NCBI GenBank assembly: GCA_016214555.1
Contig: JACROF010000012.1
Location: 70,066 to 134,065 of the forward strand
DNA length: 64,000 nt
Direction of reading: 5' to 3'
From: Candidatus Levyibacteriota bacterium
Lineage (GTDB): Bacteria; Patescibacteriota; Microgenomatia; Levybacterales; UBA12049
Position 1 is the stretch's first letter. The number at the start of each line of letters is the position of its first letter. A model generated the notes under the pieces. It worked only from the letters and a program-made list of their open reading frames with translations. It was not told where the DNA came from and ran no database searches. Below, one piece after another: positions 21,478-58,227 of this stretch. The translations under genes were made by a program, and so were the position numbers.

Positions 21478-21481
21478 ATTG

Positions 21482-22288
21482 TTAGGAAAGTTTATTAAAT
21501 ATAGTATAGACGTTTTGGGTTGTTTGTTCCACAATGCGATCATAAGAAACTTCTTTAACCCCGCTTAGGAATTTTCCTATTAAAATTACATATTCAGGGA
21601 GATTTCTTTCTCCTCTATGGGGAATAGGGGTTAAGTAGGGGCTGTCTGTCTCGACTACTATCCGGTCAAGAGGGGTAAGTTTTGCCAATTCTTTCAGTTC
21701 AACTGTTTCTTTTGGAGCTAACCCTGGATAAGTGATATTTCCGTCAAAACCTATAAAAAAACCAAGATTTAGTGCTTCTTTAAGCACTTCTTTTGTACCT
21801 GCGAAACAATGAAACATTCCTGGTACGGTTTGTAAAAGATGTTTTTTTTCTTTTAGTATCATTAGTATGTCCTCTCCTGCTAGACGATTATGAATTTGAA
21901 GAGGGAGTTTGAGCTTGTGTGCTAGCTCAATTTGAGTAATAAAAACTTCCTTTTGTATTTTTGGATCAACTATCCCGTTTGATTTATAGCTAAAATAATC
22001 AAGTCCTATTTCTCCAATGCCTATTACTTTACTTTGCTTTGCAATCATTTCAAGGTCATCAATCCAGTTATTGCCGAGTTCAATTTTATCGGCATGGTGA
22101 GGATGAATGCCAACAATTGCAAAAAGTTCAGAGTATTGTTTTGCAAGATCAACGGCCAGCTTACTTGAGTCGAGCTTTGTTCCTGTGTTGATAATTCTTG
22201 TTACGCCTTTTTCTAATGCACTTTTAATGACAGCGTCATAATCAGACGAAAAAGAATGAAAATTTAGATGACAGTGAACATCGATCAT
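21482..22288 (-). CDS. tatD: TatD-family metal-dependent deoxyribonuclease
   Basis: 268 aa. MIDVHCHLNF N-terminus and conserved His/Glu/Asp positions of the TatD TIM-barrel hydrolase. Confidence 0.85.
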   Translation of the reverse strand: MIDVHCHLNFHSFSSDYDAVIKSALEKGVTRIINTGTKLDSSKLAVDLAKQYSELFAIVGIHPHHADKIELGNNWIDDLEMIAKQSKVIGIGEIGLDYFSYKSNGIVDPKIQKEVFITQIELAHKLKLPLQIHNRLAGEDILMILKEKKHLLQTVPGMFHCFAGTKEVLKEALNLGFFIGFDGNITYPGLAPKETVELKELAKLTPLDRIVVETDSPYLTPIPHRGERNLPEYVILIGKFLSGVKEVSYDRIVEQTTQNVYTIFNKLS

Positions 22289-24143: not shown

Positions 24144-24165
24144 AAAATAGCACTCTTGGTATTAT
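24136..24165 (+). promoter_or_regulatory. sigma70-type promoter of hrcA operon (TTGACA -18- TATTAT)
   Basis: ttgaca at 24136-24141 and tattat at 24160-24165. The -10 lies inside the CIRCE spacer, the classic arrangement for HrcA-repressed promoters. Confidence 0.45.
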
Positions 24166-24173
24166 AGTGCTAA
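24147..24173. promoter_or_regulatory. CIRCE inverted-repeat operator (HrcA binding site)
   Basis: aTAGCACTC-ttggtatta-TAGTGCTAA versus consensus TTAGCACTC-N9-GAGTGCTAA: 9-bp arms, 9-nt spacer, one mismatch per arm. Located 10 nt upstream of hrcA. Confidence 0.65.
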
Positions 24174-28796: not shown

Positions 28797-29180
28797 ATGA
28801 AAATTGTCTCTGCTCGACAATGGATTCAAAAATTATCTTATTCGTTATTTTTTGTGGATGTTGCGTATGCTGCCGATCCAGCTTCCTCTTGTGATTCTTC
28901 AGCTGTTATGACACAGCTTGGGTGTCTACCGAAAGATCCTGTACTCTTTGTTAGTAGTTTTTATGGTATTGGACTGAGTATGGTTGGTGGAGTAGCTCTT
29001 CTCTTTATCATTATTGGAGGTTACACAATTCTTACTTCTCGAGGGAATCCAAGTCAAATTAACGCAGGAAAAAGTTATATTTTTTACTCGATTGCTGGCC
29101 TTATTCTTGCAATATTTGGCTATCTCTTTATAGAGATATTTTTGGTTGATCTTCTTCATATACCTGGTCTTGGACACTAA
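28797..29180 (+). CDS. small secreted two-TM protein, VirB2/TrbC pilin-like (hypothesis)
   Basis: 127 aa. Signal peptide ending AYA-ADP. Mature ~100 aa with two hydrophobic helices separated by a short polar loop (TSRGNPSQINAGKS). Size and topology resemble TrbC/VirB2 T-pilin subunits. Stop is 2 nt before the next gene. Confidence 0.5.
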   Translation: MKIVSARQWIQKLSYSLFFVDVAYAADPASSCDSSAVMTQLGCLPKDPVLFVSSFYGIGLSMVGGVALLFIIIGGYTILTSRGNPSQINAGKSYIFYSIAGLILAIFGYLFIEIFLVDLLHIPGLGH

Positions 29181-29181
29181 A

Positions 29182-33193: not shown

Positions 33194-35866
33194 ATGCTTG
33201 GAAATTTATTTAGTTCTCATAAAGATCCTAAAGAGGAGTTGGTCTCGCCTCAAGAGCAAAATCCAGCAGATACAAGTACTGCTGCTAATACATTGACACA
33301 CATAGAGTCACGAATGGATCCAACGCTTAGGCAAAATGTCTCAGCGCTATCCCATCTTGATTCTCGTACTACGCAAGTTCTTCATCACGCTCAAGAAGAG
33401 ACAAGGCGCATTAAGCAAGCTCAAATACAGCCTGAACAAGTATTGCTAGGACTACTATACGATGAGGAAGTTTTTAAGCTACTTGAAGGTTTTGATGTTG
33501 ATGTTGCAAAGCTTGCCCAGGAAATTCAGAGTAAAGAAGAAGTAGGAAGTTTCCAAGAGCAGCCGATGTTGAGTAGCGCAAGTACTCAGCTATTTGAGCA
33601 GGCATATAGAGACGCAAAAACCAGAAACGCCAGCTTTGTTTCACCAGAGGATCTTTTGGTTGAGATTTGCAATTTATCTATTGATTCCGTAAAGCTCCTA
33701 GTGGAAAAGGGAGTTACTAAACAACATATTTTGGACAAATTATCGTCGTCTACAGAATACACCACGGGTAAAAAATCAGTTCTTGAACAATTCGCCATAG
33801 ATCTCACTGCTGAAGCAAAAGCAGGGAAATTGGATCCAATCGCAGGAAGAGATAGGGAAATTGACAGACTTGTTCACATTTTACTTCGAAGGACAAAAAA
33901 CAACCCAATAATTATTGGTGAAGCTGGAGTCGGTAAAACAGCGATTGTTGAAGGACTTGCACAGGAAATTGTTGCAGGAAGTATACCATCTGACCTTAAA
34001 AACAAAAAAATTTATCAGCTTGATCTTGCATCGCTTGTAGCTGGCGCTAGCCATAGAGGAGAGTTTGAGGAGCGACTAAAAGGGATAATCAATGAAACAA
34101 TTGCGTCACAAGGTCAAATAATCCTTTTTATTGATGAAATACATACCCTCATTGGGGCAGGTGACACTGACGGCGCTTTGGATGCTTCAAACATAATAAA
34201 GCCCCATTTAGCAAGAGGTCATATGCAGATTATTGGAACAACTACCACAGTTGAGTATAGAAAGCATTTTGAGAAAGATAAGGCTTTCGAGCGACGTTTT
34301 CAACCAATCCTTGCTGATGAACCATCTGAAGAGGCTGCTGTTGAAATGCTGAAAGTGTTAAGGCCAAAATATGAGAAATATCATGGTGTGACAATCCCTG
34401 ATGATACTTTGGTAGATGCCGTTAAGTTATCAAAAAAATATATTGGAGAAAGATATCTTCCTGATAAAGCAGTTGATCTTATCGATGAAGCTTCAGCAGA
34501 TGTAAAGCTTGGACGAATTTCTTTTAAGCAGGATGTAAAGGAATCGGGAGAAAACTCAAATGACACACCGCCTCGTTCACAGGCAACAACGGGTAATGAG
34601 GTGGTAAAGTCAGATATTGAGAGAGTTGTGAGCAATTGGACTGGTATTCCAGTTACAAAATTGACTGAAGACGAGAGTCAGAAGCTTCTTAAGCTTGAGG
34701 ATAATATTCATAAAAGACTTATCGACCAGCAAGAAGCAGTCGTTGCGGTATCTGAGGCTGTACGGAGAGGGAGAATTGGGTTAGCTCCGGCAAATAGGCC
34801 AATTGCATCATTTATATTTCTCGGTCCAACAGGCGTTGGCAAAACAGAATTAGCAAAAACGCTTGCCGAGTTACTTTTTGGGCGTGATGATGCTCTTGTG
34901 AGGCTTGATATGAGTGAATATATGGAAAAGCATGAGGTAGCTAAGTTGATTGGGGCTCCTCCAGGATACGTTGGTTATGAAGAAGGAGGTCAGTTGACAG
35001 AGGCGGTTCGGGCAAAGCCATACTCAATAGTTCTACTTGATGAGGTAGAAAAAGCACATCCTGATGTTTTTAATATTCTTTTACAGCTTTTGGAAGATGG
35101 TCGATTAACAGACAATAAAGGTAATACTATTTCGTTCAAAAATACTATTGTTATAGCTACCTCCAATATTGGAAGTTCGCTTATTCAGCAACAGCTTAGT
35201 GAAAAAGGAGAGCCACAATCGCAGGAAGCTTTTACTAAAGAGTTTAGTGATTTGACAACGCTTGTAACAGCAGAGTTAAGAAAGTTTTTTAAGCCAGAAC
35301 TTCTTAACCGATTTGATGACGTGGTGATGTTTAAGCCTTTGAGAAAAGCAGATATGACGCAGATTGCAAAGCTTGGTATCGGAAAAACAGCAAAATTGCT
35401 TGAAGAGCAGGGGTATCATGTTCAGACAACGGATGCTGCGATTGCGCAGCTTGCGCAGGAAGGATACGATCCTGTATATGGAGCAAGGCCGCTTAGAAGG
35501 CTTATCCAGTCATCTATCGAAAATCGAGTAGCTCTTATGATCATAGGGAAGGAATTTATGCCTGGAGATACTATTGTGATTGATTATAACTCGACAAAAG
35601 GAGGTTTTAATTTCTCAAAAGGCGGTGGTCAGAGTGTAGTTGGTCCAGAAAAAAACATCGATAATCGAGACAATAATACTCAACCTCTTGATATGGTTGA
35701 AAAATCTCATCTTCCTGAGTCAGGAACAGGGGAAGCTCAGGCGTTACCTAAGGAGCCTGAGTACGCGCAGCCCAGCTTCAATCCTCCATTCTTGAGTAAT
35801 CAAAATAACAACGTCAATGGTGAGACTTTTGTAAAGAACGAAATCACTTCTGCCTCAAGCAATTAA
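33194..35866 (+). CDS. Hsp100/Clp-family double-AAA+ ATPase (ClpC/ClpA-like architecture, no ClpB M-domain, no recognisable ClpP-docking IGF/IGL loop), Q/N-rich C-terminal tail
   Basis: 890 aa. Two Clp_N repeats. NBD1 Walker A GEAGVGKT and Walker B ILFIDEIH. Only ~45 aa between NBD1 and NBD2. NBD2 Walker A GPTGVGKT, Walker [11 protein letters not shown], sensor ATSNIG and GARPLRR. No G-F/G-L tripeptide after the sensor-1 region. Confidence 0.85.
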
Positions 35867-35937: not shown

Positions 35938-36267
35938 ATGTCTGCCCTGTTTTTCTACCCATTTTACGTATTGAGATTTTGGTATGGTGAAGGTCCTGTT
36001 GTTGTACTCAAGCATTTCTATATTTTTAATCGTGTATTTCTTGATTTTTTTTCTGTAAAAATTCTTCTAAAAACCTTTTTTCTTCCTGTAAAAAATGAAT
36101 ATCGCGATGGTTTGGTCGGATTTTCCATTGGAATTGGGATTTTTATGAAAAGCTGTTTACTTATCATTGCAGCATTTTTATTTATGATACTTCTTGTTTT
36201 TGAAGTGGTGATTTTTGGAGGATATATGGCATTTCCTTTGATTACAGTAGGATTGTTGTTGTGGTAA
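35938..36267 (+). CDS. small polytopic membrane protein, unknown function
   Basis: 109 aa, 3 hydrophobic helices. Stop overlaps the start of the following membrane-anchored Clp-like gene, suggesting translational coupling. Confidence 0.4.
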   Translation: MSALFFYPFYVLRFWYGEGPVVVLKHFYIFNRVFLDFFSVKILLKTFFLPVKNEYRDGLVGFSIGIGIFMKSCLLIIAAFLFMILLVFEVVIFGGYMAFPLITVGLLLW

Positions 36268-36269
36268 TT

Positions 36270-38669
36270 ATGGATAGACAACTCGTATCAATATATTTGT
36301 TTTATAGAAGTATAGAAGTAAAATTTATAAGAGTTGCTCTTCCAGTGATTCTTCTGATGTGGATTCCCCTTGTGCTTATTACTAACGAATCCCCTAATGT
36401 TCCCATTGTTATTTTTAATCTTTATCTTATGGGAGAACTTTTTTATCGGTATAAGATTTGTACATTAAGAACAAAAAATACCCTTCTGGATCAGGAAGAT
36501 CCTTATAAGAGTATGTCTTTAGAGGTAGCTTCAGTATTTCAAAATGCTTCATCAACAAAGGAAATATTAAGACGCTTGTTTAGTCATCAACAGGTCATTT
36601 TTGGGTTACAAAGAATGGGTGCTTCTCCGCGAGATGTAGTGAGTATTGAATACGAAGCCAACGTGTTGCTGCTAAGAGCGTCTGAGCTCGCTAAAAAAAT
36701 ACAGGGAACAAAGATTACTCTTATAGATGTGCTCAATTCTTATCTGATTGTCTCAGATGAGAAGACAAATTTCCTTTTACATAAGCGATTAAAAGAGAAT
36801 GACTTGCTGCAGATTTCTGTCTGGGTTAGGAAGATCTATCAATTTGAGGAAAAACCAAGGGAGCTATTTTTTGCAAATTACGGAGGAGGATTGGGGCAAT
36901 GGCTTGTGTCTGGGTGGACCTTGGAAACTAAAAAGTATACACAAGTTTTTCCTCAGAAGGATCTTAATCTTGATGTTTCTATTATTGGCAGAGAAAAAGA
37001 ATATCAGTTATTACAAGAAAGCTTATTAAAACCTGAAAGAAATAATATTCTAATTGTTGGAAAAACAGGGGTAGGCAAAGAGCAGCTGCTTAGAAGGCTG
37101 GCAGAGGATAGTTTTAGTGGAAAACTTGATAAGAATCTTTCATATAAAACAATTCTTGAAGTACTCGTTGGATCACTTGTCGCTGGAGCAAATCAACAAG
37201 GCGATCTTCAGGAGCGTTTAAAAGAAATCATTGAGGAGGTTAGCCATGCAGGCAATGTTATTCTTTATATTCCTGAATTCCAGAACCTTCTTGGCGGGAC
37301 CAGCTTTTCACTTGATCTTTCTGGGGCATTAATGCCATTCCTTCGTGATGGAAAGCTTCCGATTATCGCAAGTGTCACTGACGAAAATTTTAAAAGATAT
37401 ATACAAGGTAAACCTATCTCTGAAATGTTTTCTGATATTCATCTTACGGCTCCCAGTAGTAATCAGGCTGAGCAGATGATAATGGAAAAGATCGTGGAGC
37501 TTGAAAGAAAACATGCAGTAATAATTACTTATCCTGCTGTCAAGACATCGGTGATGTTTGCACAAAAATATTCTGATAGTTCTGAGTTACCAGGAAGTGC
37601 AATTGATCTACTGTCTGATGCAATGAGTAAAAAAGCTTCTGAAGATATTCATGATGCACATAATAAGTTTCGTTTAGTTACTGAGAAAGATATTATTCAT
37701 ACAGTTGAACAGCGAACAAGTATTGCGTTGGATGATCCAACAGAAGAAGAGAGTTCAAGGCTACTTCATCTAGAATCTATTATGCATGAGCGGATCATAG
37801 GTCAAGATCAGGCTATTAAAGCTATTGCAGAATCTCTTCGAAGACTCAGAACAGGGGTTCAGAGTCTAGATAGACCTACCTCCTTTTTGTTCCTGGGCCC
37901 AACAGGTGTTGGTAAAACTGAAGTAGCAAAAGTATTATCAAATATTTATTTTAATGGTGAAGCGAATATGATCCGTCTTGACATGAGCGAGTATGCATCA
38001 ACCGATGGTATTGAGAGATTAATAGGAGCATCTACCAGACAAAACGATCTGAGAGGTGAGTTGACTGAGAAAATCCATGATCATCCAAATTCCCTTGTCC
38101 TTCTTGACGAATTTGAGAAAGCTCATTCGTCGGTGGCAAATCTCTTCCTTCAGATTCTTGATGATGGTAGATTGACCGATGGGAGAGGTAATACTGTTTC
38201 TTTCAGTAACGCGATTATTATCGCAACATCGAATGCTGGAGCAAATTTTATTCACGATGCGATAGAAAAAAATGTATTTCTTGATAGCTCGTTTCAGAAG
38301 CAATTGAGAAGCTTTCTTCAGGCAAATAATATATTCAAGCCAGAATTACTCAACCGCTTTGATGATATTGTTGTTTTTCGGCCACTCTTAAAGGATGATG
38401 TTAGGAAAGTAACAGAAATTTTGTTAAGAGATCTTATAAGTCACATGAAAGAAAAAGACATAACACTCTCCGTTGAGGATATTGCAGTGTCTAAAATAAT
38501 ATCAGAAGGTTATGATAAAGAATATGGAGCAAGACCAATTCGGAGATATATCCAAGACAATCTTGATGATCTTATTGCGAAAGAAATCCTTAATAAATCA
38601 ATTAATAGAGGAGATAGGGTAAGAATTGGCGTCAATCAAATAAATGAGTTTGTTATTTATCGAATTTAG
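36270..38669 (+). CDS. membrane-anchored Hsp100/Clp-like ATPase with degenerate (catalytically dead) first AAA+ domain and intact second AAA+ domain
   Basis: ATG at 36270 (GTG at 36261 in the track). Two N-terminal TM helices, then a Clp_N-like repeat pair. NBD1 Walker A reads VGKTGVGKEQL (canonical T/S replaced by E), Walker B reads ILYIPEF (D replaced by P), and the Arg finger is lost. NBD2 is canonical ([36 protein letters not shown]). Confidence 0.8.
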   Translation: MDRQLVSIYLFYRSIEVKFIRVALPVILLMWIPLVLITNESPNVPIVIFNLYLMGELFYRYKICTLRTKNTLLDQEDPYKSMSLEVASVFQNASSTKEILRRLFSHQQVIFGLQRMGASPRDVVSIEYEANVLLLRASELAKKIQGTKITLIDVLNSYLIVSDEKTNFLLHKRLKENDLLQISVWVRKIYQFEEKPRELFFANYGGGLGQWLVSGWTLETKKYTQVFPQKDLNLDVSIIGREKEYQLLQESLLKPERNNILIVGKTGVGKEQLLRRLAEDSFSGKLDKNLSYKTILEVLVGSLVAGANQQGDLQERLKEIIEEVSHAGNVILYIPEFQNLLGGTSFSLDLSGALMPFLRDGKLPIIASVTDENFKRYIQGKPISEMFSDIHLTAPSSNQAEQMIMEKIVELERKHAVIITYPAVKTSVMFAQKYSDSSELPGSAIDLLSDAMSKKASEDIHDAHNKFRLVTEKDIIHTVEQRTSIALDDPTEEESSRLLHLESIMHERIIGQDQAIKAIAESLRRLRTGVQSLDRPTSFLFLGPTGVGKTEVAKVLSNIYFNGEANMIRLDMSEYASTDGIERLIGASTRQNDLRGELTEKIHDHPNSLVLLDEFEKAHSSVANLFLQILDDGRLTDGRGNTVSFSNAIIIATSNAGANFIHDAIEKNVFLDSSFQKQLRSFLQANNIFKPELLNRFDDIVVFRPLLKDDVRKVTEILLRDLISHMKEKDITLSVEDIAVSKIISEGYDKEYGARPIRRYIQDNLDDLIAKEILNKSINRGDRVRIGVNQINEFVIYRI

Positions 38670-38722: not shown

Positions 38723-39877
38723 ATGAAAAAGAGAGCATACAAAAGGAAGCATGTTGTTTTAAAGACAAAACGACATAAAAAATTTCACCATAAAGTTATA
38801 TCTTTTTTTAGGGGAGATGGCGGAATTTATGTAATTTTTATTCTTGCTACCGCAATGGCTGGAGCATTTGCCTTAACAGGTGGTATTCTTCCTCAGCTTA
38901 ATCCTACTCCACCTGCATCAAGCCAAGTTGATATAGATACCGAGTCAGCAAAGCAAAGCAGCGAGAATGCTTTGCAGCTTGTTGACATAAAGCCAAAACC
39001 GACCGAGGTGCCTACGCCTACCAGTGAAATTACTCCCAGTACCTCGCCTAGTATCTCTCCTAGCATCTCGCAGCCTCCTCCTGTTCAGGAATGTTATAAC
39101 AAGACGTTAGTGACTTTGATACTTGATTATTCAAATTCAATGCTAACACCAAATTCAAGTCCAAAATATACTGCTTTAAATTCTGCGCTTGGATCTTTCT
39201 ATACACAATTGAGTGGTTATGCTAATGCTGGCATCGGAGCTCAAGCATTTACTGGAAAAGATTCTGGGAATACACCGCTAGATGGTGTATTTAACCTGTT
39301 GAATTACAAATTAGTAAAGAATGTTTCATCTTCAGATAAGCAAAAAATTACTCAAGTAGATAAAGCTGTTTTAGAAAATAGTAATGGTGGAGGAACCTAC
39401 ATGAGAAATGGGTTTTCCTATACTATTTCCAAATTAGAATCAGCTCCCTCTTCTTTTGCAGGATATAGAAAAGTTGCCATAATTTTTTCTGATGGTATTC
39501 CTGAGGAGACATGGGAAGATAGAGAATCCCACAACGGGGATGCAAATTCTTCTTCAGTTTGCTTAGGGAGTGGTAGATATCAGCAGAGATGTTTTTCAAT
39601 TTATCAAGACCCACGAGTAAATTCAACAAACAGATTACCTGATCTAGTAAAGGGACTAAAAGATATAACAGATAGTGTATACGTCGTTGGTATTTATGAT
39701 AGCAAAAGTGGTGAAGGGCTAGTTTTTAAAGATAATTTGATTAGCCTGTTACAGACGATTGCAGAGAGGAGCACGACCCCATTCTATCAATTTATAGACT
39801 TAAAAGATGATCCAGCGGCGGCATTGCAAAAATTAAATCCAGCTTTTCAAAATATTTTTAAAGACGTTTGTAAGTAA
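38723..39877 (+). CDS. membrane-anchored von Willebrand factor type A (vWA) domain protein with MIDAS motif
   Basis: 384 aa. Highly basic N-terminus (KKRAYKRKHVVLKTKRHKK), one TM helix, a P/S/T-rich linker, then a vWA domain with LILDYSNSM (DxSxS MIDAS) and later AIIFSDGIPEE. Confidence 0.7.
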   Translation: MKKRAYKRKHVVLKTKRHKKFHHKVISFFRGDGGIYVIFILATAMAGAFALTGGILPQLNPTPPASSQVDIDTESAKQSSENALQLVDIKPKPTEVPTPTSEITPSTSPSISPSISQPPPVQECYNKTLVTLILDYSNSMLTPNSSPKYTALNSALGSFYTQLSGYANAGIGAQAFTGKDSGNTPLDGVFNLLNYKLVKNVSSSDKQKITQVDKAVLENSNGGGTYMRNGFSYTISKLESAPSSFAGYRKVAIIFSDGIPEETWEDRESHNGDANSSSVCLGSGRYQQRCFSIYQDPRVNSTNRLPDLVKGLKDITDSVYVVGIYDSKSGEGLVFKDNLISLLQTIAERSTTPFYQFIDLKDDPAAALQKLNPAFQNIFKDVCK

Positions 39878-42651: not shown

Positions 42652-43734
42652 ATGGACAATCAGGCACTTCAAAAAATAAAAGATATTATAGCTGGTAGTC
42701 AGTCAACGGCTATTATTGTTGGGGCAAATCCTTCCATTGATCAAATGGCTGCTGCTCTTTCTTTCTATTTATCTCTTCAGGCTCAAGGTAAAGCTGTAAG
42801 TGTAATATCCCCTACGCAACCAATCGTTGAAGTTTCATCTCTTGTCGGCATTGATAAAGTAGCTACTTCAAATGAATCTGCAGGAGGAGATTTGGTTGTC
42901 TCATTTCCATATAGAGAAGGAGAAATTGAGAAAGTATCCTACACCATAGACAATAACCTACTCAATATTGTAGTTAAGGCTGGTGAGCTTGGTCTTAATT
43001 TTTCTGAGCAGGATGTTGTATTTAAAAGAGGTTCATCCAAGCCAACTCTTGTTATAGCAATTGGTATAACATCACTTCATGATGTTGAATCTAATTTCCC
43101 ACAAGGATCGCTTGGAGACGTTCCAATTATTAATATTGATAATAAGAGAGAAAATGAGGGTTATGGATCAATGATATTAGTCTCTGCAAAATTCTCTTCA
43201 CTCTCAGAGCAGGTTGCTGATCTCATGCTCAATCTTAGTTATGATTTTGATGTTGATGTCGCTCAGAATTTATTGTCAGGTATTACTAATGCTACCAATA
43301 ATTTTCAAAGTCAAACTACATCTTATTTAGCTTTTGAAATAGCATCTATTTTGCTTAAAAAAGGTGCTCAAAGAATGCAAAATTCTCTACAAGCTCAAGC
43401 TGCAGTTCCTCAATCTCGTCCATCATTTGTCCAGGCTCAGTCACAGCAGGTCCAGCCTCTTCCAGCGCAACCTCAGCCACAACAGAGACAAAAAGAAGAG
43501 CGTCAGGATCGTCGGGAGGCTATTAGGGAAGCTCTCAGGGCTCAATCACAGACAAGGCAACATGACCAGAGGACTCAATCTCAAAGACCAGAAAGAGGTT
43601 TTCAGCAGGCTCAAGGGCCAATCTCGCCTCAGCAGGTCCAGCAACCTCAATTACAACCAAAGCAGCAAAATGATCAGAAGCCACCTTCAGATTGGCTAAC
43701 GCCAAAGGTTTATAAAGGGTCATCTTCTGTTTAG
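42652..43734 (+). CDS. DHH-family (NrnA-like) protein with degenerate catalytic motifs and Gln/Pro-rich C-terminal tail
   Basis: 360 aa. N-terminal region aligns in pattern with the NrnA DHH domain, but the canonical D-H-H motif is not evident and the PDxDAxGS region reads PSIDQMAAAL. C-terminal ~110 aa is Q/P/R-rich low complexity. Occupies the post-infB slot where DHH phosphoesterases are often found. Confidence 0.55.
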   Translation: MDNQALQKIKDIIAGSQSTAIIVGANPSIDQMAAALSFYLSLQAQGKAVSVISPTQPIVEVSSLVGIDKVATSNESAGGDLVVSFPYREGEIEKVSYTIDNNLLNIVVKAGELGLNFSEQDVVFKRGSSKPTLVIAIGITSLHDVESNFPQGSLGDVPIINIDNKRENEGYGSMILVSAKFSSLSEQVADLMLNLSYDFDVDVAQNLLSGITNATNNFQSQTTSYLAFEIASILLKKGAQRMQNSLQAQAAVPQSRPSFVQAQSQQVQPLPAQPQPQQRQKEERQDRREAIREALRAQSQTRQHDQRTQSQRPERGFQQAQGPISPQQVQQPQLQPKQQNDQKPPSDWLTPKVYKGSSSV

Positions 43735-43785
43735 TCTACGCAATACAGTTGCCAGACAGTAAGAAACTTGGTATAATACACTCCT

Positions 43786-44055: not shown

Positions 44056-46404
44056 ATGGAAAAAACCTCTGTTAACCTCGAATTTGCAGGTAAAACATTA
44101 TCATTACAGACAGGTCGTCTTGCTCCTCAAGCTACCTCATCGGTTTTAGCTAGGCTTGGCGATACTGTTATTCTTGTGACTGTCGTTGAAGGAAAAATAC
44201 GAGATGATATCGATTACTTTCCTTTGAGTGTTGAGTATACAGAAAAATTGTACGCAGGCGGAAGAATTAAAGGAAGCCGTTGGGTAAAGCGCGAAGGTCG
44301 TCCCACTGATGAGGCAATCCTTATAGGGAGACTTATAGATCGTTCAATCCGTCCTCTCTTTCCTAAAGAGTTTAAAAACGAAGTTCAGGTTGTTGTAACT
44401 GTTCTTTCAGTTGATGGAGAGCATGAGCCAGATATTATTGCACTTAATGCAGTGTCTGCTGCTCTTGCAATATCACCGATTCCATGGAAAGGTCCTATTG
44501 GAGCAATTCGTATGGGCTCAGTCAAAAATGGGGACAAAGTTGAGTATGTATTCAATCCAACAGCTACAGAAGGCCAGTTGTCAGAGCTTGATATCGTTGT
44601 TTCTCAGAGCAGTGATCTTACCCTCATGATTGAAGCAGGGGCGATGCAAGTTCCTGAAGACGTTGTTCAGGGAGCGATCGTTGAGGCTCACAAAGAAACA
44701 AAAAAAATTATTACATTTATCGAGGAGCTTGTTAAAAAAGTTGGCGTTAAAAAACATTCCACTACTCCAAATCCACTCCTTTCAGATGCAGTTGCTCTTA
44801 TAGAAAAGAATTTCAAAAATGAAGTTGCCGCTCTTATTAAAGGTAGAGCAAATAAGGAAGGAAGTGGGAGTGAGACAGATGACCTTCTTTTAAAAATTGT
44901 TGAGCATGATAAGAGTACTAATGATAATACTCAGCTTGATAAAAAGATTTTTGCAAAAGCTCTCGAGCAGGTAATGTTCAAAATTATCCGTCATAACGTC
45001 ATTACTAAAAAAGCACGACCAGATGGACGTAAAATTGATGAAATTAGAAATATTTCAGTTGATGTTGGTGTTCTTCCACGAACTCATGGGTCAGCAATTT
45101 TTGAGAGAGGTCTCACCCAGGCACTTTCAATTGTTACGCTTGGTTCTCCTCGCATGGAGCAATTGATCGAGTCTGCAGAAGGTGAAGAGAGTAAGCGATA
45201 TATCCATCATTACTCAGGCCCACCATATTCTGTGGGTGAGGCTGGTAGAATTGGAACGCCTTCAAGACGAGAAATAGGTCACGGAGCTTTGGCGGAAAGA
45301 GCTTTGTTAGGTGTTATTCCAACACAAGATAAATTTCCTTATACAGTGAGAGTCGTTTCTGAAGTTTTATCTCAAAATGGTTCAAGCTCTATGGCTTCAA
45401 CTTGTGGGTCGACGCTCGCTCTTATGGATGCTGGTGTACCTATTTTGAAACCTGTTGCAGGAATTTCAATTGGCATGATGTCTGATGAAAAAGATTATGT
45501 GCTACTTACAGACATAATTGGCCTTGAGGATTTCTCTGGAGATATGGATTTTAAAGTTGCAGGAACTGATCAGGGTATAACGGCAATTCAGCTTGATGTA
45601 AAAATCCCCGGCCTAACTGATAAGCAGATAAAAGAGATTTTTGATAGGGCACATGATGCTCGGTTGAATATTCTTGAGACTATGCTTAAAGCATTGCCAA
45701 CTTCTCGAGAAAATATATCTGCATTTGCTCCCAAGATTGAACAGCTTCAAATTCCTGTCGAAAAGATTGGTGAACTGATTGGTCCTGGAGGAAAGACTAT
45801 TAAAAATATTATAGCTCAAACTGGTGCAACAGTTGATGTTGAGGATGATGGAACAGTAACTATATCAGGCGTTGAAGCTGAAGCTGTTAAAAAAGCTATT
45901 GAATGGGTTCAGGGGCTTACAAGAGAAGTAATGGTAGGTGAGGTTTTTGAAGGGCCAGTAAAGAGAATTCTCCCTTTTGGAGCATTTGTTGAGATTTTAC
46001 CAGGCAAAGAAGGTATGGTGCATGTTTCAAAGATGGGTGAAGGATTTGTAAATAGTCCTGAGGATATTGTTTCTCTTGGTCAGGTTGTAAAGGTAAAAGT
46101 ATATGAGATCGATGATCAAGGAAGGATAAATTTGACTATGAAGTTTGGCAACGAAGGATCTTCAAGTGAGGGTGGAGAATCTGGTGGAGGGTCAGGTCAG
46201 CGAAGAGCAGCTCAGCCTCAAACAAGATCTTTTGAGAGAAGACCATACGAACCACGACGTGGAAATGAGACTGGTCATTCAAGAGATAGAAGAGATTTTT
46301 CTAGAGGTGATCGCCCACAAGGTAAGCATCCATTGTCACAAATGTTTGAAAGAGAGCGAATGGGAAGTAGACCTCAAGGACCTCGTCGCCGCTCGCATTA
46401 TTAA
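44056..46404 (+). CDS. pnp: polynucleotide phosphorylase (PNPase) with KH, S1 and Arg/Gly-rich C-terminal tail
   Basis: 782 aa. Two RNase PH domains, KH (IGPGGKTIKNI), S1 (GEVFEGPVKRILPFGAFVEI) and an RG-rich tail. Confidence 0.95.
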   Translation: MEKTSVNLEFAGKTLSLQTGRLAPQATSSVLARLGDTVILVTVVEGKIRDDIDYFPLSVEYTEKLYAGGRIKGSRWVKREGRPTDEAILIGRLIDRSIRPLFPKEFKNEVQVVVTVLSVDGEHEPDIIALNAVSAALAISPIPWKGPIGAIRMGSVKNGDKVEYVFNPTATEGQLSELDIVVSQSSDLTLMIEAGAMQVPEDVVQGAIVEAHKETKKIITFIEELVKKVGVKKHSTTPNPLLSDAVALIEKNFKNEVAALIKGRANKEGSGSETDDLLLKIVEHDKSTNDNTQLDKKIFAKALEQVMFKIIRHNVITKKARPDGRKIDEIRNISVDVGVLPRTHGSAIFERGLTQALSIVTLGSPRMEQLIESAEGEESKRYIHHYSGPPYSVGEAGRIGTPSRREIGHGALAERALLGVIPTQDKFPYTVRVVSEVLSQNGSSSMASTCGSTLALMDAGVPILKPVAGISIGMMSDEKDYVLLTDIIGLEDFSGDMDFKVAGTDQGITAIQLDVKIPGLTDKQIKEIFDRAHDARLNILETMLKALPTSRENISAFAPKIEQLQIPVEKIGELIGPGGKTIKNIIAQTGATVDVEDDGTVTISGVEAEAVKKAIEWVQGLTREVMVGEVFEGPVKRILPFGAFVEILPGKEGMVHVSKMGEGFVNSPEDIVSLGQVVKVKVYEIDDQGRINLTMKFGNEGSSSEGGESGGGSGQRRAAQPQTRSFERRPYEPRRGNETGHSRDRRDFSRGDRPQGKHPLSQMFERERMGSRPQGPRRRSHY

Positions 46405-46444: not shown

Positions 46445-47572
46445 ATGCCCGATTCAAACCTGCCACCTTTTCCAACTCCAACTTTGTCAAAGGTAATACC
46501 ATCAACAGAATCTGAGTCTCCGGATCAGATACGAAAGCTTGGGGAGAGAGTCGAAAAAGCTCAGCTACCTGATACCTTAAGAGAAAACCTTTTAGAAAGA
46601 GTATCAAGACTCGCACTTTTACGAGCTAGCGCTGGTTTTATGAGTGCGGACTACATTCTTGAATATGAAAAGACTTCAAGTTATATCAACTGGGTAGTCG
46701 GACTACCCTGGCATAAGCAGAGTGTTGATGTTCTTGATCTTGCGAAAGCCAAAGAATCAATGGATAAATATCATTATGGTCTAACTGAGATTAAGAATAG
46801 AATTCTCGATTATTTGGCAACTCTTATTTTGAATATGAGACAACAAAAGCGAGATGTAGTTCAAAGAGCGCCTATTTTATGCCTTGTTGGTTTGGCAGGT
46901 ACAGGGAAAACAACTCTTGCTAAGTCGATTGCTGAAGCGCTTGGTAAAGAATTTGAACGTATACCCTTTGGCGGAATGGCAGATGCTCGGGCTCTGCGTG
47001 GACAATCGAAGGCTTTTCCCGATGCTGAACCCGGATATGTGATAAAGAAATTATTTCATGCACAAATGAACAATCCTGTCATACTTCTTGATGAGTTGGA
47101 TCGTGTGACAGAGTCGTCAAGAGCTGACATTATGGGTGTTCTCGTTGAGCTACTAGACCCTGAGCAGAACTTTGCCTTCACTGATCACTATGTTGATTTT
47201 CCATTCGACCTTTCAAATGTTTTGTTTATTGCAACAGCAAATAATACGAGCAATATCTCAACTGCTGTGTTGGATAGGCTTGAGATTATTCAAATGCCTT
47301 CTTATACTGACGAAGAAAAGACTGTAATTGCAAAACAATATCTTTTTGGAAAGATTCGTTTGGAGGCAGGACTTTCGGAGCAGCAAATGATGGTTGATGA
47401 ATCTGTGTGGCCTGGAATTATTAGGCCACTTGGCTTTGATTCCGGAATTCGTTCTCTTGAGAGAACAATTCAAGGAATGTGCAGAAAGGTAGCTCGGGAG
47501 ATTGTTGAAGGGAAAGTTCAGTCAGCTCGGATTAGTGATGCCAATCTCAAACAATATTTACCAACATGGTAA
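46445..47572 (+). CDS. Lon-derived standalone AAA+ ATPase (Lon helical linker + AAA+ module; no LAN N-domain, no protease domain)
   Basis: 375 aa. LPWHKQSVDVLDLAKAKESMDKYHYGL matches the Lon pre-AAA helix. Walker A GLAGTGKTTLAKSIA. VLVELLDPEQNFAFTDHYVDFPFDLSNVLFIATAN matches the Lon sensor region. The ORF ends where the Lon protease domain would begin, and RNase J starts 10 nt later. Confidence 0.75.
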   Translation: MPDSNLPPFPTPTLSKVIPSTESESPDQIRKLGERVEKAQLPDTLRENLLERVSRLALLRASAGFMSADYILEYEKTSSYINWVVGLPWHKQSVDVLDLAKAKESMDKYHYGLTEIKNRILDYLATLILNMRQQKRDVVQRAPILCLVGLAGTGKTTLAKSIAEALGKEFERIPFGGMADARALRGQSKAFPDAEPGYVIKKLFHAQMNNPVILLDELDRVTESSRADIMGVLVELLDPEQNFAFTDHYVDFPFDLSNVLFIATANNTSNISTAVLDRLEIIQMPSYTDEEKTVIAKQYLFGKIRLEAGLSEQQMMVDESVWPGIIRPLGFDSGIRSLERTIQGMCRKVAREIVEGKVQSARISDANLKQYLPTW

Positions 47573-47581: not shown

Positions 47582-49300
47582 ATGAAAGATATGCACCAAG
47601 ATCAACAAAAAATACAGAACACTACACAGCCACAATTGTCGGTGATTCCCTTAGGTGGAATTGAGGATGTTACAAAAAATATGTACGTATACGAGTACAA
47701 AAATGAAATTCTTATCGTAGATTGTGGTATTGGCTTTGCGGACGCATCTGCACTAGGAGTTGATCTTTTGCTTCCTGATATTACGTATCTTATTCAAAAT
47801 TGTCTCCCAGCTGATAAGGCTAAAAAGCGTATTGTTGGACTTCTTTTAAGTCACGGTCATGAGGATCATATTGGTGCTCTACCTTTTATATTACCTCAAC
47901 TTCCCAAAATTCCTGTATATGCGACTCCATTTACGGCAGCATTGGCGAATGAAAAGTTGCGTGAATATCAATTGCCTGCAGATATAAAATCTGTTTCATT
48001 TGGTGGTAAGCCGATAAATCTTGGTCCGTTTAGTTTTAATTTTTTATCAGTGACTCATTCTGTCCCAGATACATCACACATTGTTATTAAAACACCGGTT
48101 GGCACCGTCTACCATGGAAGTGATTTTAAAATTGATATGACACCATATGATAATAAGCGGATGGACTTTAAGGGAATAGTTGATGCGGCAAAAGATGGAA
48201 TTCTTATTCATATGACTGACTCTCTTGGGTCAGATAGGCCAGGTCATACGCCTTCCGAGGATGGAATGCAAAAGACGTTTGAAAGACTTATTACAGAATG
48301 TAAAGGGAAATGTATTGTTACTACGTATTCATCAAATGTTTCTCGTCTTAACCAAGTTATTGAGGCAGCTGAAAAAGCAAAAAGAAAGGTTAGTTTTGTT
48401 GGAAGATCACTAGTGAAGGTAACTGATGTGGCAAAAAGACTAGGATATCTTCATGTAGAGGATGGAACTATTATTGATATTAATCAAGCAAAGAGGTATC
48501 ACCCAAGTAAATTAGTGCTTATCGTTGCTGGCAGTCAGGGGCAAGAAAATTCTGCCATGACGAGAATAGCTGAGGGACAACATAGGGATATTAGCCTTTC
48601 TTCTGATGACCTTGTCGTTTTTTCAGCAGAACCGATTCCTGGCAATGAAGAAGCAGTAAATAGCCTTATTGATTCAATAGCAAAAACAGGGGCCCGAGCA
48701 ATTACATCATCTCAGTCAACGCTATTGCATGTCTCTGGCCACGGCTCACAGCAAGATCACCTCATGATGATGTCGCTACTCAAATCAAAATATATTATCC
48801 CAATAAGTGGAAATTACAAACATCTGGTTATGTATAAAGATTTAGCAAAAAAAATGGACTATATAGATAAAAATGTCCTCATTTTAGAAAATGGTCAGGA
48901 AGTTATTTTTACGCAATCTAGCTATCGTTTGGGAAGAAAAATAGCAACCAAAAATGTGTATGTAGATCAGTTATCAGGTGAAGAAGTAGAAGGTTTTGTT
49001 CTTCGTGATAGAGAAAAATTGGCTAAAGACGGAATAATTATTCTTATGGTTGAGATAAATACTACTGATGGTCAATTGATGAATAGGCCAGATATTATCG
49101 CTCGGGGTTTACTTCCAAAAGATATCGAAACACTTCAGAAATCACTTACTATTGAAATGAAAAAACTTTTAGCAAAAAGAAAAGCGAGAGTGACGAATTG
49201 GGTTCATATGAGAAGACAGATTGAAGAAATGGCAAGTAAGCATATTTTTTATAAGCTACGAAGGAGACCGTTGGTTCTGCCAATTGTCATCGAGGTTTAG
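47582..49300 (+). CDS. rnj: ribonuclease J (metallo-beta-lactamase / beta-CASP RNA-degrading nuclease)
   Basis: 572 aa. LSHGHEDHIG (HxHxDH) motif, beta-CASP region and C-terminal domain. Confidence 0.9.
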   Translation: MKDMHQDQQKIQNTTQPQLSVIPLGGIEDVTKNMYVYEYKNEILIVDCGIGFADASALGVDLLLPDITYLIQNCLPADKAKKRIVGLLLSHGHEDHIGALPFILPQLPKIPVYATPFTAALANEKLREYQLPADIKSVSFGGKPINLGPFSFNFLSVTHSVPDTSHIVIKTPVGTVYHGSDFKIDMTPYDNKRMDFKGIVDAAKDGILIHMTDSLGSDRPGHTPSEDGMQKTFERLITECKGKCIVTTYSSNVSRLNQVIEAAEKAKRKVSFVGRSLVKVTDVAKRLGYLHVEDGTIIDINQAKRYHPSKLVLIVAGSQGQENSAMTRIAEGQHRDISLSSDDLVVFSAEPIPGNEEAVNSLIDSIAKTGARAITSSQSTLLHVSGHGSQQDHLMMMSLLKSKYIIPISGNYKHLVMYKDLAKKMDYIDKNVLILENGQEVIFTQSSYRLGRKIATKNVYVDQLSGEEVEGFVLRDREKLAKDGIIILMVEINTTDGQLMNRPDIIARGLLPKDIETLQKSLTIEMKKLLAKRKARVTNWVHMRRQIEEMASKHIFYKLRRRPLVLPIVIEV

Positions 49301-55190: not shown

Positions 55191-55925
55191 TTATTCATCG
55201 TTTGGGTGAATTATTTTTGACTTAATAATGAGTCTTTTCCATGTCGTTCCTGGAGGAGTACACGTAACAAGAGTTAAATAATTATTATCATACTGTTGGT
55301 CAAAAAAAGAAGTATCAGTAGGAGTTGTGATTGTAAGATTGTAAATCTTATAATGATAGTCCATATTGTTTACTTTTATGATAATTTCGTCTCCAATCTC
55401 CAACGCATGAGCGTTGGCAAATATTGTTTTGTAATCTCCTTCTTTATAGAATTGAGGTAGAGTTGAGTGACCAAATATTACAGCAGTGCCTTTACTTGGA
55501 GGAACGGCGGTGCCCCCATACTGAACTAAGTGTGTTGATAGGTCATTATCAATGGTAGATACCATTGCGTTAACGATGTGAATTTTTGGAATTGAAATCG
55601 CATAACTGGTAACAGCTGCATCGGTATGTGATGTTTTAATAGAGGGGTACCAGTTTTGTGCGTTTGTGTAATCAATTCCTTTTATAGAATCTGTAGTAGC
55701 TTGAAGCAGAGATTGAAATGATGAGTCGGTTAAGATTGTGTATTTTGGAACAGGCGCTGCTATTTTTTGTGATGCAAAAACAGGCTGGAGATAAATTTGA
55801 AAAAGAATGAGAGGAATAGAAAAATAAATTGCAAATGCTAATCCGACTATACACAAAGTAAGCCCTACAAATCGTAGTAGTTTTCGCAGTAAAAGGGGAT
55901 TTTTTTTCCTATAAATTTTAGTCAT
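55191..55925 (-). CDS. sortase-family transpeptidase
   Basis: 244 aa. N-terminal TM anchor. Conserved His (AVIFGHSTLP), the LTLVTCTP active-site motif (TLxTC), and a downstream Arg. Confidence 0.7.
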   Translation of the reverse strand: MTKIYRKKNPLLLRKLLRFVGLTLCIVGLAFAIYFSIPLILFQIYLQPVFASQKIAAPVPKYTILTDSSFQSLLQATTDSIKGIDYTNAQNWYPSIKTSHTDAAVTSYAISIPKIHIVNAMVSTIDNDLSTHLVQYGGTAVPPSKGTAVIFGHSTLPQFYKEGDYKTIFANAHALEIGDEIIIKVNNMDYHYKIYNLTITTPTDTSFFDQQYDNNYLTLVTCTPPGTTWKRLIIKSKIIHPNDE

Positions 55926-58227
55926 TCGCTTGAGGAGTTATTGTAATATTTTGAGATATTCTCGGAAGAAGTTTTGGTAAGAGAGGTATATTGGGTGATA
56001 GGATAATTTCAGCAGATTCAACCTGAGGAATATCAGATAGATAATTTTCAGCGTTGCTAAATGATTTACCGGCAAGATCTTTTTGAATAGTATTTATATC
56101 AATTTTTGGAAGTAGGCCTGCTTTAATAATTAGTTTTCCTTCGACTTCAGTTGATGAAGTTTTTTTAATGTTTTCCAGTGATGCAGAAATGCCTTTTTCA
56201 GAAATGGCAAGATCTTCTGAGTATCTTCCTTTCAAGGTTGATTCTGCAAGCTTATTTAGGTCATCTTTTGAATACGAGAGAGAGGTGAAAGTAACTGTTC
56301 CTTTGAGGGTAACTTTTTTTGCTTCATCATCTACGTCGTGATCGTATGACTTTTTAGAAATGGTTGTTGCAGTAAAGAAAGGAAGTAGGTCATGATCGTT
56401 TGAAAGTTTTTTTGTGATAGTTTCTGTCGCTTTTTCTTGAAGGGATTTTATAAGATTGGCATCAAGTGAATCAAGATCTTTTTTTGCAACAACGGTGATT
56501 TCTTTTTTAGTACCTCCCGAAAAGGCTGAGTCATTCTTTGCCGCAAGCGTACTTGAAAGTGCGAGTGTGAATTTTGTTCCTGATGGAAGATTAGATGATG
56601 TACCTATCTCTTTTGCCGTAACATTTACTTGAACTGTTCCTGGTTTTGTACCAGAAAATACGTCGCCTGACTGAGATGCAATTGATACTTCTTTATCTGT
56701 TGTGTAAGTAAGATTATTTGATGAAGTAATAACGGTTCCAGCTGGTACCGTTTTTTTATTATCTGAATTGTTGTAAAGCGTTACTGTACCTTTTGCCTTT
56801 TCTCCTACATCTTTCTTTCCTGTTGCATCAGTAGAAACTGATCCATCAAGAGAAGTTTGAACTTCTTCTGCAGAAAGTATTTTTTGTGAGAGATCATTAG
56901 TAGAATCAGTTTGTAATGTTACTTCAGTTGATTCATCAATTCCTCTTGTTTTCATATGGAGAATAACAGTGGCCTTTAATGAGAAGATATAAAGAAGAAT
57001 TACTCCAATAAGTATGATCAGAGCTATTGGGATAAATATCATTTTTTTTCTAAACTGTAGAGAAGGATTTCTAAAAAAAGAAATTTTTTGGATTTTTTCT
57101 AAAAGACTGAATAAAAATAGCATTTTGCTAGTTGAGGGAGTATGGGAAGATGATAGTGATTTCGCTTCATGAGTTTTGCCATGGGGTAAAAAATTGTCCC
57201 CTATAAGAGGCGTATTCTCCGATGGAGTGTTAATATTTCTTTCTACAGTTTGAGGCCTGACTTGTGATATGTCTTGTCCTACAACAAATCCAAAATCATT
57301 GTCCTCATTTTTTATTACGGAAGTTGATGTATCGTCGATATCTTTTTCTCTATCATCCTTAGGATTTTTATCTTCTTCTATGTTTTCTTTCTCTTCTGAT
57401 CTCTTTAGTTTTTTTGATGATGTTTCTTCTTCTCCCTCAAGGGTAATTGGTTTAATATCATTGAACGCATCTAATACTGAGTAATTCATTTGCTCTGCAG
57501 TTCCGTAGACCATTGACTTTGCGTCAAATCCTTCGGGAAGAACGGATATTTGTGGCACATGCAAAAAAGGGATGCTTTTACTCCAATGGTGTGCTATAAA
57601 ATCCTGTGCTAATTCCTCTGCACTTCCGCCATTAAAAACAATAATTCTTGATGGAAGTACATCAGTTGTAAAATGATGGAGAAGTTTGTCTACTGTCAAA
57701 GGTATTGAGTCCTCGATTCGAGAAGTGTGGATCTCAAGAATGTTTCCTGCACGAAAAAGAGTGAGTGTAGCTTGTTGTTTGCCTATTTCCGCTAAGATTG
57801 CAGACAGGGGAGCTCCCTCTTCTTTTGTGAGAAGGTGAGCAATTGCCTCGCTGGTGATCATAAATCCGATAGGTCGAAGCGATAGTGAGTCTGAAAGTTT
57901 TTTAAGGTTTGATAAATATTCTTTTTTAATCTTTTTTTCATCGACCCAACTTTCCTTAACTCCAAATACAGTTTTTTCGGTCTCAACATTTGGTGGTAGA
58001 TTTTCCTCAGCTTTACTGATGGTTTTATCAAGAGTTTCAAGAAGTTCTTCAAATGGTGTGTCCTCAAGATTTCTTGGAAAAGTAGTAGATGCTGTTCCGA
58101 TATATTTTAATTTTCCATCGACTTCTTCTAAGACAACAGCAACAGCTTTTTCATCTCTTAAGAGAAGAGAGAGGATATAATTTGATGTCTCCTTTTTTTG
58201 AAAGATTGAAGGAATTGGCAGCTTCAT
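55918..58227 (-). CDS. large bitopic membrane protein: N-terminal cytoplasmic domain (possibly actin-like FtsA/PilM fold), one TM, C-terminal Ser/Thr-rich extracytoplasmic domain
   Basis: 769 aa. Single TM (IFIPIALIILIGVILLYIF) near residue 400. The N-terminal 270 aa is globular. The C-terminal 350 aa is S/T/K-rich and repetitive. No LPXTG motif. Overlaps the sortase gene start by 8 nt. Confidence 0.6.
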   Translation of the reverse strand: MKLPIPSIFQKKETSNYILSLLLRDEKAVAVVLEEVDGKLKYIGTASTTFPRNLEDTPFEELLETLDKTISKAEENLPPNVETEKTVFGVKESWVDEKKIKKEYLSNLKKLSDSLSLRPIGFMITSEAIAHLLTKEEGAPLSAILAEIGKQQATLTLFRAGNILEIHTSRIEDSIPLTVDKLLHHFTTDVLPSRIIVFNGGSAEELAQDFIAHHWSKSIPFLHVPQISVLPEGFDAKSMVYGTAEQMNYSVLDAFNDIKPITLEGEEETSSKKLKRSEEKENIEEDKNPKDDREKDIDDTSTSVIKNEDNDFGFVVGQDISQVRPQTVERNINTPSENTPLIGDNFLPHGKTHEAKSLSSSHTPSTSKMLFLFSLLEKIQKISFFRNPSLQFRKKMIFIPIALIILIGVILLYIFSLKATVILHMKTRGIDESTEVTLQTDSTNDLSQKILSAEEVQTSLDGSVSTDATGKKDVGEKAKGTVTLYNNSDNKKTVPAGTVITSSNNLTYTTDKEVSIASQSGDVFSGTKPGTVQVNVTAKEIGTSSNLPSGTKFTLALSSTLAAKNDSAFSGGTKKEITVVAKKDLDSLDANLIKSLQEKATETITKKLSNDHDLLPFFTATTISKKSYDHDVDDEAKKVTLKGTVTFTSLSYSKDDLNKLAESTLKGRYSEDLAISEKGISASLENIKKTSSTEVEGKLIIKAGLLPKIDINTIQKDLAGKSFSNAENYLSDIPQVESAEIILSPNIPLLPKLLPRISQNITITPQAND

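Follow-up and report, generated by a model that had tools for sequence, protein, structure and literature searches.

A stand-alone Lon-type AAA+ ATPase without a protease domain, conserved in Microgenomates and Dojkabacteria

We analyzed 64,000 nucleotides (nt) from the genome of a Candidatus Levyibacteriota bacterium (GenBank assembly GCA_016214555.1, contig JACROF010000012.1, positions 70,066 to 134,065 of the forward strand), a stretch referred to below as the window. Between pnp and rnj lies an open reading frame (ORF) of 375 amino acids (aa) that encodes a stand-alone Lon-type AAA+ ATPase and is identical to a database protein (P0001) labeled 'AAA family ATPase [Candidatus Levybacteria bacterium]'. 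The features of this gene and of its surroundings are collected in Table 1.

Only the Pfam domains AAA and Lon_lid were found in the 375-aa protein; neither LON_substr_bdg nor Lon_C (PF05362) was matched. The NCBIfam model for lon, TIGR00763, aligned residues 23-361 with profile positions 248-572 of 795, and the score of 328.5 bits was far below the equivalog cut-off of 608, as expected because the protein is partial. The score for NF008053 (258.8, cut-off 891) did not reach its threshold either. Comparison among the NCBIfam models (lon, E = 1e-97; clpX, E = 6e-4) shows that the affinity is clearly with Lon and not with ClpX. A phmmer search of the PDB (E ~1e-70) matched residues 8-338 of Bacillus subtilis Lon (3m6a) and residues 245-579 of Escherichia coli Lon (6u5z); the aligned span of LonA covers residues ~246-580 only, with ~36-44% identity. 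The last aligned residue of the query, 372, corresponds to E. coli Lon 579. In Lon a linker connects the AAA+ module to the protease (P) domain; the protein contains only the first 3-4 residues of this linker and thus ends at the ATPase/protease boundary.

Table 1 Features of the Lon-type gene and its surroundings, in window coordinates.
Feature	Position	Strand	Basis or remark
Best sigma-70-like promoter match (11/12, with TG)	43749..43777	+	upstream of rpsO; consensus scan only
pnp (polynucleotide phosphorylase, PNPase; 782 aa)	44056..46404	+	40 nt upstream of the Lon-type gene
Stand-alone Lon-type AAA+ ATPase ORF	46445..47572	+	ATG start, TAA stop, 375 aa
N-terminal tail, residues 1-26, P/S/T-rich, predicted disordered	46445..46522	+	pLDDT <50 at residues 1-23
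Three-helix bundle NTD3H, residues 27-86, C-terminal part of LonA HI(CC)	46523..46702	+	model helices; aligns with Lon ~247-300
AAA+ large (α/β) subdomain, residues ~114-284	46784..47296	+	Pfam AAA 145-283; LonA fold match
Walker A, G149-LAGTGKT-T157 (Lon 356-GPPGVGKTS-364)	46889..46915	+	G149, G152, G154, K155, T156 kept in family and Lon
Pore loop 1, R185-GQSKAFPDAEP-G197	46997..47035	+	residue counts, 206 family members against 50 LonA
Walker B, V212-ILLDE-217 (D216/E217 = Lon D423/E424)	47078..47095	+	alignment
Pore loop 2 region, residues 223-232, ESSRADIMGV	47111..47140	+	Lon R-G-D-P-x-S-A, family R-x-D-I-M-G-V
Sensor-1 Asn N266 (Lon N473)	47240..47242	+	alignment
Trans-acting arginine finger R278 (Lon R484)	47276..47278	+	alignment
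Lon-type lid (small α-helical subdomain), residues 285-358	47297..47518	+	Pfam Lon_lid 307-357
Sensor-2 R336 (Lon R542)	47450-47452	+	within lid; alignment
C-terminal strand and tail N-x-K-x-[FY]-[LV]-P-x-[WY], then stop	47519..47572	+	end = start of Lon linker to P domain
rnj (RNase J; 572 aa)	47582..49300	+	9 nt downstream, same frame

The structure predicted with AlphaFold2 on the basis of 76 family sequences, with a mean predicted local distance difference test score (pLDDT) of 79 and a predicted template modeling score of 0.72, comprises a disordered tail (residues 1-23), three helices (21-38, 43-63, and 68-86), an α/β domain, and a helical lid. In Foldseek comparisons this model matched LonA/LONP1 chains at template modeling (TM) scores of 0.75-0.80 and the E. 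coli Lon 235-584 fragment (6N2I) at a target-normalized TM score of 0.84. The tail of residues 1-26 occupies the place of the LonA N domain; it shows no sequence conservation among family members and varies in length. In Lon, the hairpin between helices 2 and 3 of NTD3H lines the entry pore; in the family this hairpin is 3-8 residues longer than in Lon. An 8-residue insertion in this hairpin was considered as a family signature and dropped, the distant members having only 3 residues.

By its Pfam domains, its alignment to Lon 246-580, and its predicted fold, the protein combines the NTD three-helix bundle with an AAA+ module and a lid of the Lon type. It is a Lon-branch member of the HCLR-clade AAA+ ATPases, but by the defining features it is not a Lon protease, because the P domain and the N domain are absent and the score lies below the equivalog cut-off. 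An earlier reading of the DNA letters by a model (the sequence-only reading) had already described a Lon derivative that lacks both of these domains, and the Pfam, tblastn, and profile results are all negative for them. It had also rightly recognized a complete AAA+ module with Lon sensor motifs (N266 and R336 are kept, along with Walker A/B and the arginine finger) and a stop at the protease-domain boundary. Its placing of the ORF start at the Lon long-helix region was accurate as to the missing N domain, but the disordered tail of 26 residues and the three-helix bundle come first, and the 'LPWHK' segment follows at residues 87-91. The statement that rnj begins 10 nt later in another frame had to be corrected, since the rnj start codon at 47582 lies 9 nt past the stop and in the same frame; with a gap of 9 nt, the deduction that no P domain fits before rnj is sound.

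The sequence-only reading had proposed a tblastn search for the protease domain. Both missing domains were sought in this way, using as queries the last 195 (P domain) and the first 235 (N domain) residues of 40 full-length Lon proteins. Across the whole window the best matches had E values of 0.05-0.08, which is chance level, and consisted of short segments dispersed over unrelated genes. Hidden Markov models (HMMs) of the P and N domains gave no match at E ≤ 10 among 14,122 six-frame ORFs from the window and 83 related loci (~1.4 Mb); as a positive control, the P-domain HMM recognized 112 of 270 collected proteins. The search for a P domain or another peptidase covered the 64-kb window and 10 kb on either side of the homologues, and in the window no peptidase gene adjoins the Lon-type gene. 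A split or frameshifted lon with an adjacent P domain was ruled out, as no P or N domain occurs in any frame of the window or of the 83 loci and the position of the stop is conserved in relatives.

We searched a database of 5.8 billion proteins and obtained 7,569 matches, the best 120 of which (68-100% identity) are all 320-451 aa long and contain only AAA and Lon_lid; neither a P nor an N domain was found in these 120 homologues. The family includes more than 200 distinct homologues, all of ~345-450 aa and all protease-less. A scan of one genome per GTDB species gave 314 stretches that encode a relative. We examined the best 80 (53-90% identity), which represent Levy-, Shapiro-, Gottesman-, Beckwith-, Roizman-, and Woesebacteria as well as other Microgenomates and include a closed chromosome (CP066685.1). 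In 83 of 83 loci the stop codon is offset by 0-4 codons from its place in the window, and most of these loci encode the C-terminal tail motif given in Table 1. One Levybacteria subclade stops 1-2 residues sooner (...FLPT, ...FLPL, or ...FLTT) and is without the terminal aromatic residue.

More distant protease-less members (P0122, P0125, P0130, P0138, P0142-P0148, P0153, P0155, P0158, P0159, P0168, and P0205) share 43-57% identity with the query, and some of them are from Dojkabacteria. No fused domain was recognized in P0159, P0158, P0147, P0138, P0146, P0153, P0144, or P0142, which contain only AAA and Lon_lid and whose extensions have no Pfam match. P0122 (453 aa) and P0125 (669 aa), both at 57% identity, carry Gln/Pro-rich low-complexity extensions of 100-300 aa before the three-helix bundle.

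A neighbor-joining (NJ) tree of 147 sequences over the 334 columns of their common core (rough and without support values) placed all 28 sampled protease-less members in one clade that contains no protease-bearing sequence, indicating a single ancient loss. Sequence comparison thus indicates that the N and protease domains were lost in the common ancestor of Microgenomates and Dojkabacteria (Patescibacteria, or Candidate Phyla Radiation, CPR). A separate observation concerns four longer proteins of 1,075-1,675 aa (P0121, P0123, P0124, and P0127), in which the query matched 2-3 stretches, i.e. tandem Lon-type AAA+ modules. Their C-terminal protease domain was seen by eye in P0121, which is from 'Candidatus Dependentiae', and with the P-domain HMM in P0124, P0123, and P0127. 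This tandem architecture appeared unusual to us, and in the same rough tree the tandem-AAA relatives (including P0124) form the sister group of the protease-less clade.

A fragment of LonA that scores below the NCBIfam lon cut-off gives the first impression of a decaying pseudogene, or of a full-length lon broken by an assembly error or frameshift. The family data make this extremely improbable. The same boundaries recur in the 83 loci, whose assemblies are independent, and in over 200 distinct proteins, internal stops are absent, and catalytic residues are at least 90% conserved. Among the closest relatives, the proportion of nonsynonymous differences (pN) ranges from 0.065 (L004, the closest) to 0.27, far below a saturated proportion of synonymous differences (pS) of 0.72-0.86, which points to strong purifying selection. 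Downstream, no remnant of a P domain is present in any frame, and rnj follows after 9 nt. The conservation of boundaries, stop, and catalytic residues, together with the low pN, refutes the pseudogene. The sequence-only reading had offered a chaperone-like Lon derivative or a pseudogene as alternatives: the second is thereby dismissed, and the first is supported as regards its derivation from Lon, its activity being predicted. That reading had suggested checking orthologues for the same truncation, which they have, and had named two signs that would speak against it, a separate or frameshifted P-domain ORF next to the gene and internal stops in relatives, neither of which was found in the window and the related loci.

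We compared residues in 206 distinct family members and 50 canonical LonA sequences, with the numbering mapped onto that of the cryo-EM study of Yersinia pestis Lon (PMC7239648). At 50 positions the two sets share the same residue with a conservation of at least 90%, and the catalytic residues are among them. K155 (Lon K362), D216/E217, N266, R278, and R336 are each at least 90% conserved in the 206 members. Elements that couple the subunits are also conserved, i.e. Y249 (Lon Y456) and D251 (Lon E458, a conservative E-to-D change) of the pre-sensor-1 (PS1) hairpin and their NTD3H partners Y80/W83 (Lon Y294/W297). As all the catalytic and coupling residues are kept, the apparatus for ATP hydrolysis and for inter-subunit coupling seems intact. 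The protein thus has a full HCLR-clade set of ATPase residues and is predicted to hydrolyze ATP, and the conservation of an arginine finger that acts in trans implies that it would function as an oligomer.

The two pore loops, which contact the substrate in Lon, are remodeled into a distinct acidic motif that the family conserves. In pore loop 1, the Lon sequence RGHRRTY(398)[VI]GA[ML]PG is replaced in the family by RGQS[RK]A[F/Y/other]PDAEPG. Y398 is invariant in the 50 LonA sequences, while the corresponding residue is F or Y in 146 of the 206 family members (71%) and otherwise L, R, H, S, N, or E. R395 and R396, the arginine partners of the PS1 hairpin in Lon, have become S188 and K/R189, and the further changes are I399 to P, G400 to D, and M/L to E; the new residues P192, D193, and E195 are conserved at 80%, 94%, and 98%, respectively, and P196 and G197 are also kept. 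The aromatic-hydrophobic pair that is invariant in Lon (Y398-I/V399) is therefore not invariant in the family, its hydrophobic partner being Pro in 80% of the members. The roles of Y398/I399 and of R395/R396 in the Lon pore loops have been described (PMC7239648). Because the new residues are themselves conserved in the family, the change looks like a specialization of the channel for narrower or different clients, possibly basic polypeptides, rather than decay.

Among known systems, LonA (Lon of E. coli, Y. pestis, and B. subtilis, and human LONP1) shares with the 375-aa protein the NTD three-helix bundle, the AAA+ module with the PS1 β-hairpin, the lid, and the nucleotide-site residues. It differs from it by its LON/PUA-like N domain, its long coiled-coil helix, its whole Ser-Lys protease domain, and its pore loops 1 and 2, which are remodeled in the family of the 375-aa protein. 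The closest counterpart is the E. coli Lon 235-584 fragment (6N2I), which has nearly the same boundaries (the C-terminal part of HI(CC) and the AAA+ module). Obtained by limited proteolysis, this fragment binds ADP, and its crystal packing is that of an open helical hexamer (PMC6722904). It is, however, a laboratory fragment of a protease, whereas the 375-aa protein is a natural, conserved gene product with diverged pore loops and an extra disordered N-terminal tail. ClpX and HslU, of the same HCLR clade, are also single AAA+ rings encoded apart from any peptidase; they nevertheless have peptidase partners and docking elements (the IGF loop and the HslU C-terminal tail), none of which was identified near the Lon-type gene.

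ClpX has remodeling roles that are independent of ClpP, and proteolytically dead yeast Pim1 supports the assembly of membrane complexes, which shows that a Lon ATPase can act as a chaperone. In LonC, the ATPase activity is lost and proteolysis is kept, an example of a Lon lineage giving up one of its two activities. The 375-aa protein is the mirror image of LonC, with the ATPase kept and the protease physically absent; dead Pim1 and LonC both retain the protease-domain fold, which the 375-aa protein does not have. A recent classification of Lon proteins (PMC9569914) gives both an ATPase and a protease domain to all Lons. Our searches of the full-text literature on protease-less Lon, CPR, Patescibacteria, Microgenomates, and proteases returned no account of a Lon that naturally lacks its protease, and none of this CPR family; two papers on Patescibacteria mention neither Lon nor proteases. 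The protein is a clade-wide domain-loss variant of LonA with a predicted function and does not represent a new mechanism.

With moderate confidence, we favor a functional, stand-alone, LonA-derived AAA+ ATPase that arose by ancient domain loss and acts as a ring-forming, ATP-dependent protein remodeler. It would assemble into a Lon-like hexameric ring or spiral, for which the crystal packing of the E. coli Lon 235-584 fragment is a precedent, and would use ATP to grip and to remodel or unfold a restricted set of clients through its modified axial channel. The clients would be left undegraded, so that the protein would serve as a chaperone or unfoldase like ClpX without ClpP or proteolytically dead Lon/Pim1. 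Several points weigh against this reading, beginning with the fact that ATPase activity, ring formation, and client remodeling are all three things that we infer. The stability of the canonical Lon hexamer comes largely from the ring of P domains, and closed rings without them may be unstable. The E. coli Lon 235-584 fragment forms an open helical array in crystals (PMC6722904). A processive polypeptide translocase would not ordinarily lose the pore-loop Tyr, as 29% of the members have done (to R, H, S, or L). Finally, a peptidase partner or a full-length lon may be present elsewhere in the genome.

Such a partner is central to an alternative that we find possible but on the unlikely side, namely that the protein is the ATPase half of a two-component ('split') protease whose peptidase, a stand-alone S16 enzyme or an unrelated one, is encoded elsewhere, as in ClpX-ClpP or HslU-HslV. 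All the elements that couple ATP hydrolysis to translocation are kept, and a conserved, mostly aromatic C-terminal tail (...[FY]-[LV]-P-x-[WY]) is situated exactly at the former junction with the P domain, where it might serve as a docking element; the terminal aromatic residue is, however, absent in the whole Levybacteria subclade mentioned above. The distant member P0147 lies between M16 and M23 peptidase genes. This is a single distant locus, and M16 genes are presumably part of the same ancient backbone of the pnp region, judging by the B. subtilis gene order. When the two Hsp100 paralogues of the window were scanned for simple motifs, no ClpP-docking loop of the IGF type appeared, so the organism may be short of cytosolic ATP-dependent proteases, which would favor a split enzyme. 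On the other hand, split genes usually stay adjacent, and no Lon P domain was found within 10 kb on either side in the 83 loci or in the 64-kb window. The relaxed pore-loop aromatic would also be unexpected in an enzyme that processively feeds a peptidase.

The Lon-type gene lies in a conserved gene neighborhood. The order in the window is hrcA-(grpE)-dnaK-dnaJ ... two Hsp100 paralogues ... nusA-infB-(360-aa ORF)-rpsO-pnp-[Lon-type gene]-rnj-ftsK-(RodZ-like helix-turn-helix (HTH) gene), and the part from nusA to the HTH gene is kept in almost all of the 80 Microgenomates loci. Among the loci with enough sequence, rnj is immediately downstream in 47 of 67 and pnp immediately upstream in 46 of 65. 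In the remaining loci (~30%), unrelated genes are inserted with the gene order unchanged. The genes inserted before rnj in L070 and L036 encode, judged by eye from their translations and without a family search, UDG-family-like, HD-domain-like, and Cys-rich proteins, with no peptidase among them. Among the distant members, P0155 has rpsO-pnp upstream (with insertions) and ftsK-RodZ downstream but no rnj, and P0147 has neither pnp nor rnj nearby.

This neighborhood brings up a role as an accessory of RNA decay, in which the ATPase would remodel PNPase or RNase J, their basic disordered tails, or ribonucleoprotein (RNP) substrates, or would bind nucleic acid as the Lon lid can. The pnp-[gene]-rnj order recurs in nearly all of the 80 Microgenomates loci, and in the window the three genes are separated by just 40 nt and 9 nt; a consensus scan showed no terminator-like site between the genes up to the end of ftsK. 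The 3' end of pnp in the window (46100-46404) encodes an Arg/Gly-rich C-terminal extension of ~90 aa that looks disordered, and the PNPases of sampled related Microgenomates loci have basic tails of 40-90 aa. It is a speculation that such a tail suits the acidic pore loop 1 (D193, E195). The same acidic pore speaks against direct threading of nucleic acid, unrelated genes separate the three genes in ~30% of the loci, and the linkage is lost in the distant members P0147 and P0155. A similar rpsO-pnp...rnjB...ftsK order exists in Bacillus, and this ancient backbone is also found in Firmicutes. We therefore see the linkage to pnp and rnj as mostly inherited and as weak support for a role in RNA decay, which we regard as improbable.

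The same genes are probably cotranscribed, i.e. the Lon-type gene with rpsO, pnp, rnj, and ftsK. No promoter-like site comparable to the one upstream of rpsO was found by the consensus scan from 43777 to the end of ftsK, the next best match on this strand (10/12) lying inside the ORF; the scan is consistent with cotranscription but is not proof of it. The TAA stop codon (47570-47572) and the rnj ATG are in frame (TAA TGT AAT ATC ATG), such that read-through would fuse both proteins. This is probably a coincidence, because the gap differs in relatives (19 nt in L001).

Two other candidate connections were rejected. A role of the protein as an anti-phage defense ATPase was set aside because PADLOC gave only weak, generic AAA matches (the best being DolB, E = 2e-9, 35 bits) and the context is one of housekeeping genes. 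Heat-shock control of the Lon-type gene through HrcA/CIRCE (controlling inverted repeat of chaperone expression) was dismissed because the sole CIRCE-like site of the window is upstream of hrcA. This repeat, ATAGCACTC-N9-TAGTGCTAA at 24147-24173, has 2 mismatches to the consensus, with none expected by chance, and lies 10 nt before hrcA (24183); a probable grpE, dnaK (25485), and dnaJ (27827) come next.

For the Microgenomates and Dojkabacteria as a whole, a more specific proposal is that their protein is either a protease-free AAA+ remodeler with an acidic channel for basic tails (such as the Arg/Gly-rich one of PNPase) or RNP clients, which would tie an unfoldase to the operon for RNA decay, or the first natural 'split Lon', with a motor that docks on a peptidase encoded elsewhere; we put it forward tentatively and consider it unlikely in this form. 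Whether the protein is a protease-free remodeler or part of a split Lon, annotations of the type 'Lon protease present' in Microgenomates and Dojkabacteria would be wrong, and these groups may be without any cytosolic Lon-type protease. Family members are already named in two ways, 'AAA family ATPase' at NCBI and 'ATP-dependent Lon protease' at JGI/IMG (P0023, P0024, P0047, P0051, and others). Names of the JGI type, and profile-based orthology calls that rest on the AAA+ part, may lead to the proteolytic capacity of CPR bacteria being overstated. Lon is the archetype of an ATPase and a protease in a single chain, so a protease-free motor under selection throughout a class would be surprising for the field of AAA+ proteases. 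The family would offer a natural experiment on the Lon ATPase alone, with regard to its chaperone or unfoldase activity, the stability of a ring that lacks P domains, and what the pore-loop Tyr contributes. At ~350 aa, it would also provide a small, defined entry point into the biochemistry of uncultivated ultra-small bacteria.

Some other genes of the window deserve mention. The two Hsp100/Clp paralogues are in tandem on the forward strand (33194-35866 and 36261-38669). The first (890 aa) has a Clp_N domain and complete Walker A/B sets in duplicate. In the other, of 802 aa, Walker A/B is confined to the second module, so its D1 module looks degenerate. Large ORFs without a Pfam match are found at 42652-43734 (+), 38723-39877 (+), 29146-33150 (+), and 19984-21543 (-). 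Among these, the 360-aa ORF at 42652-43734 is located between infB and rpsO, where rbfA and truB usually are, and its position is conserved in nearly all related loci; another, of 1,334 aa, lies between dnaJ and the Clp genes. At 55191-58227 (-), a 769-aa ORF with a weak match to Baseplate_J-like proteins (E = 3.5e-9) lies beside a sortase gene, an odd pairing in a housekeeping region.

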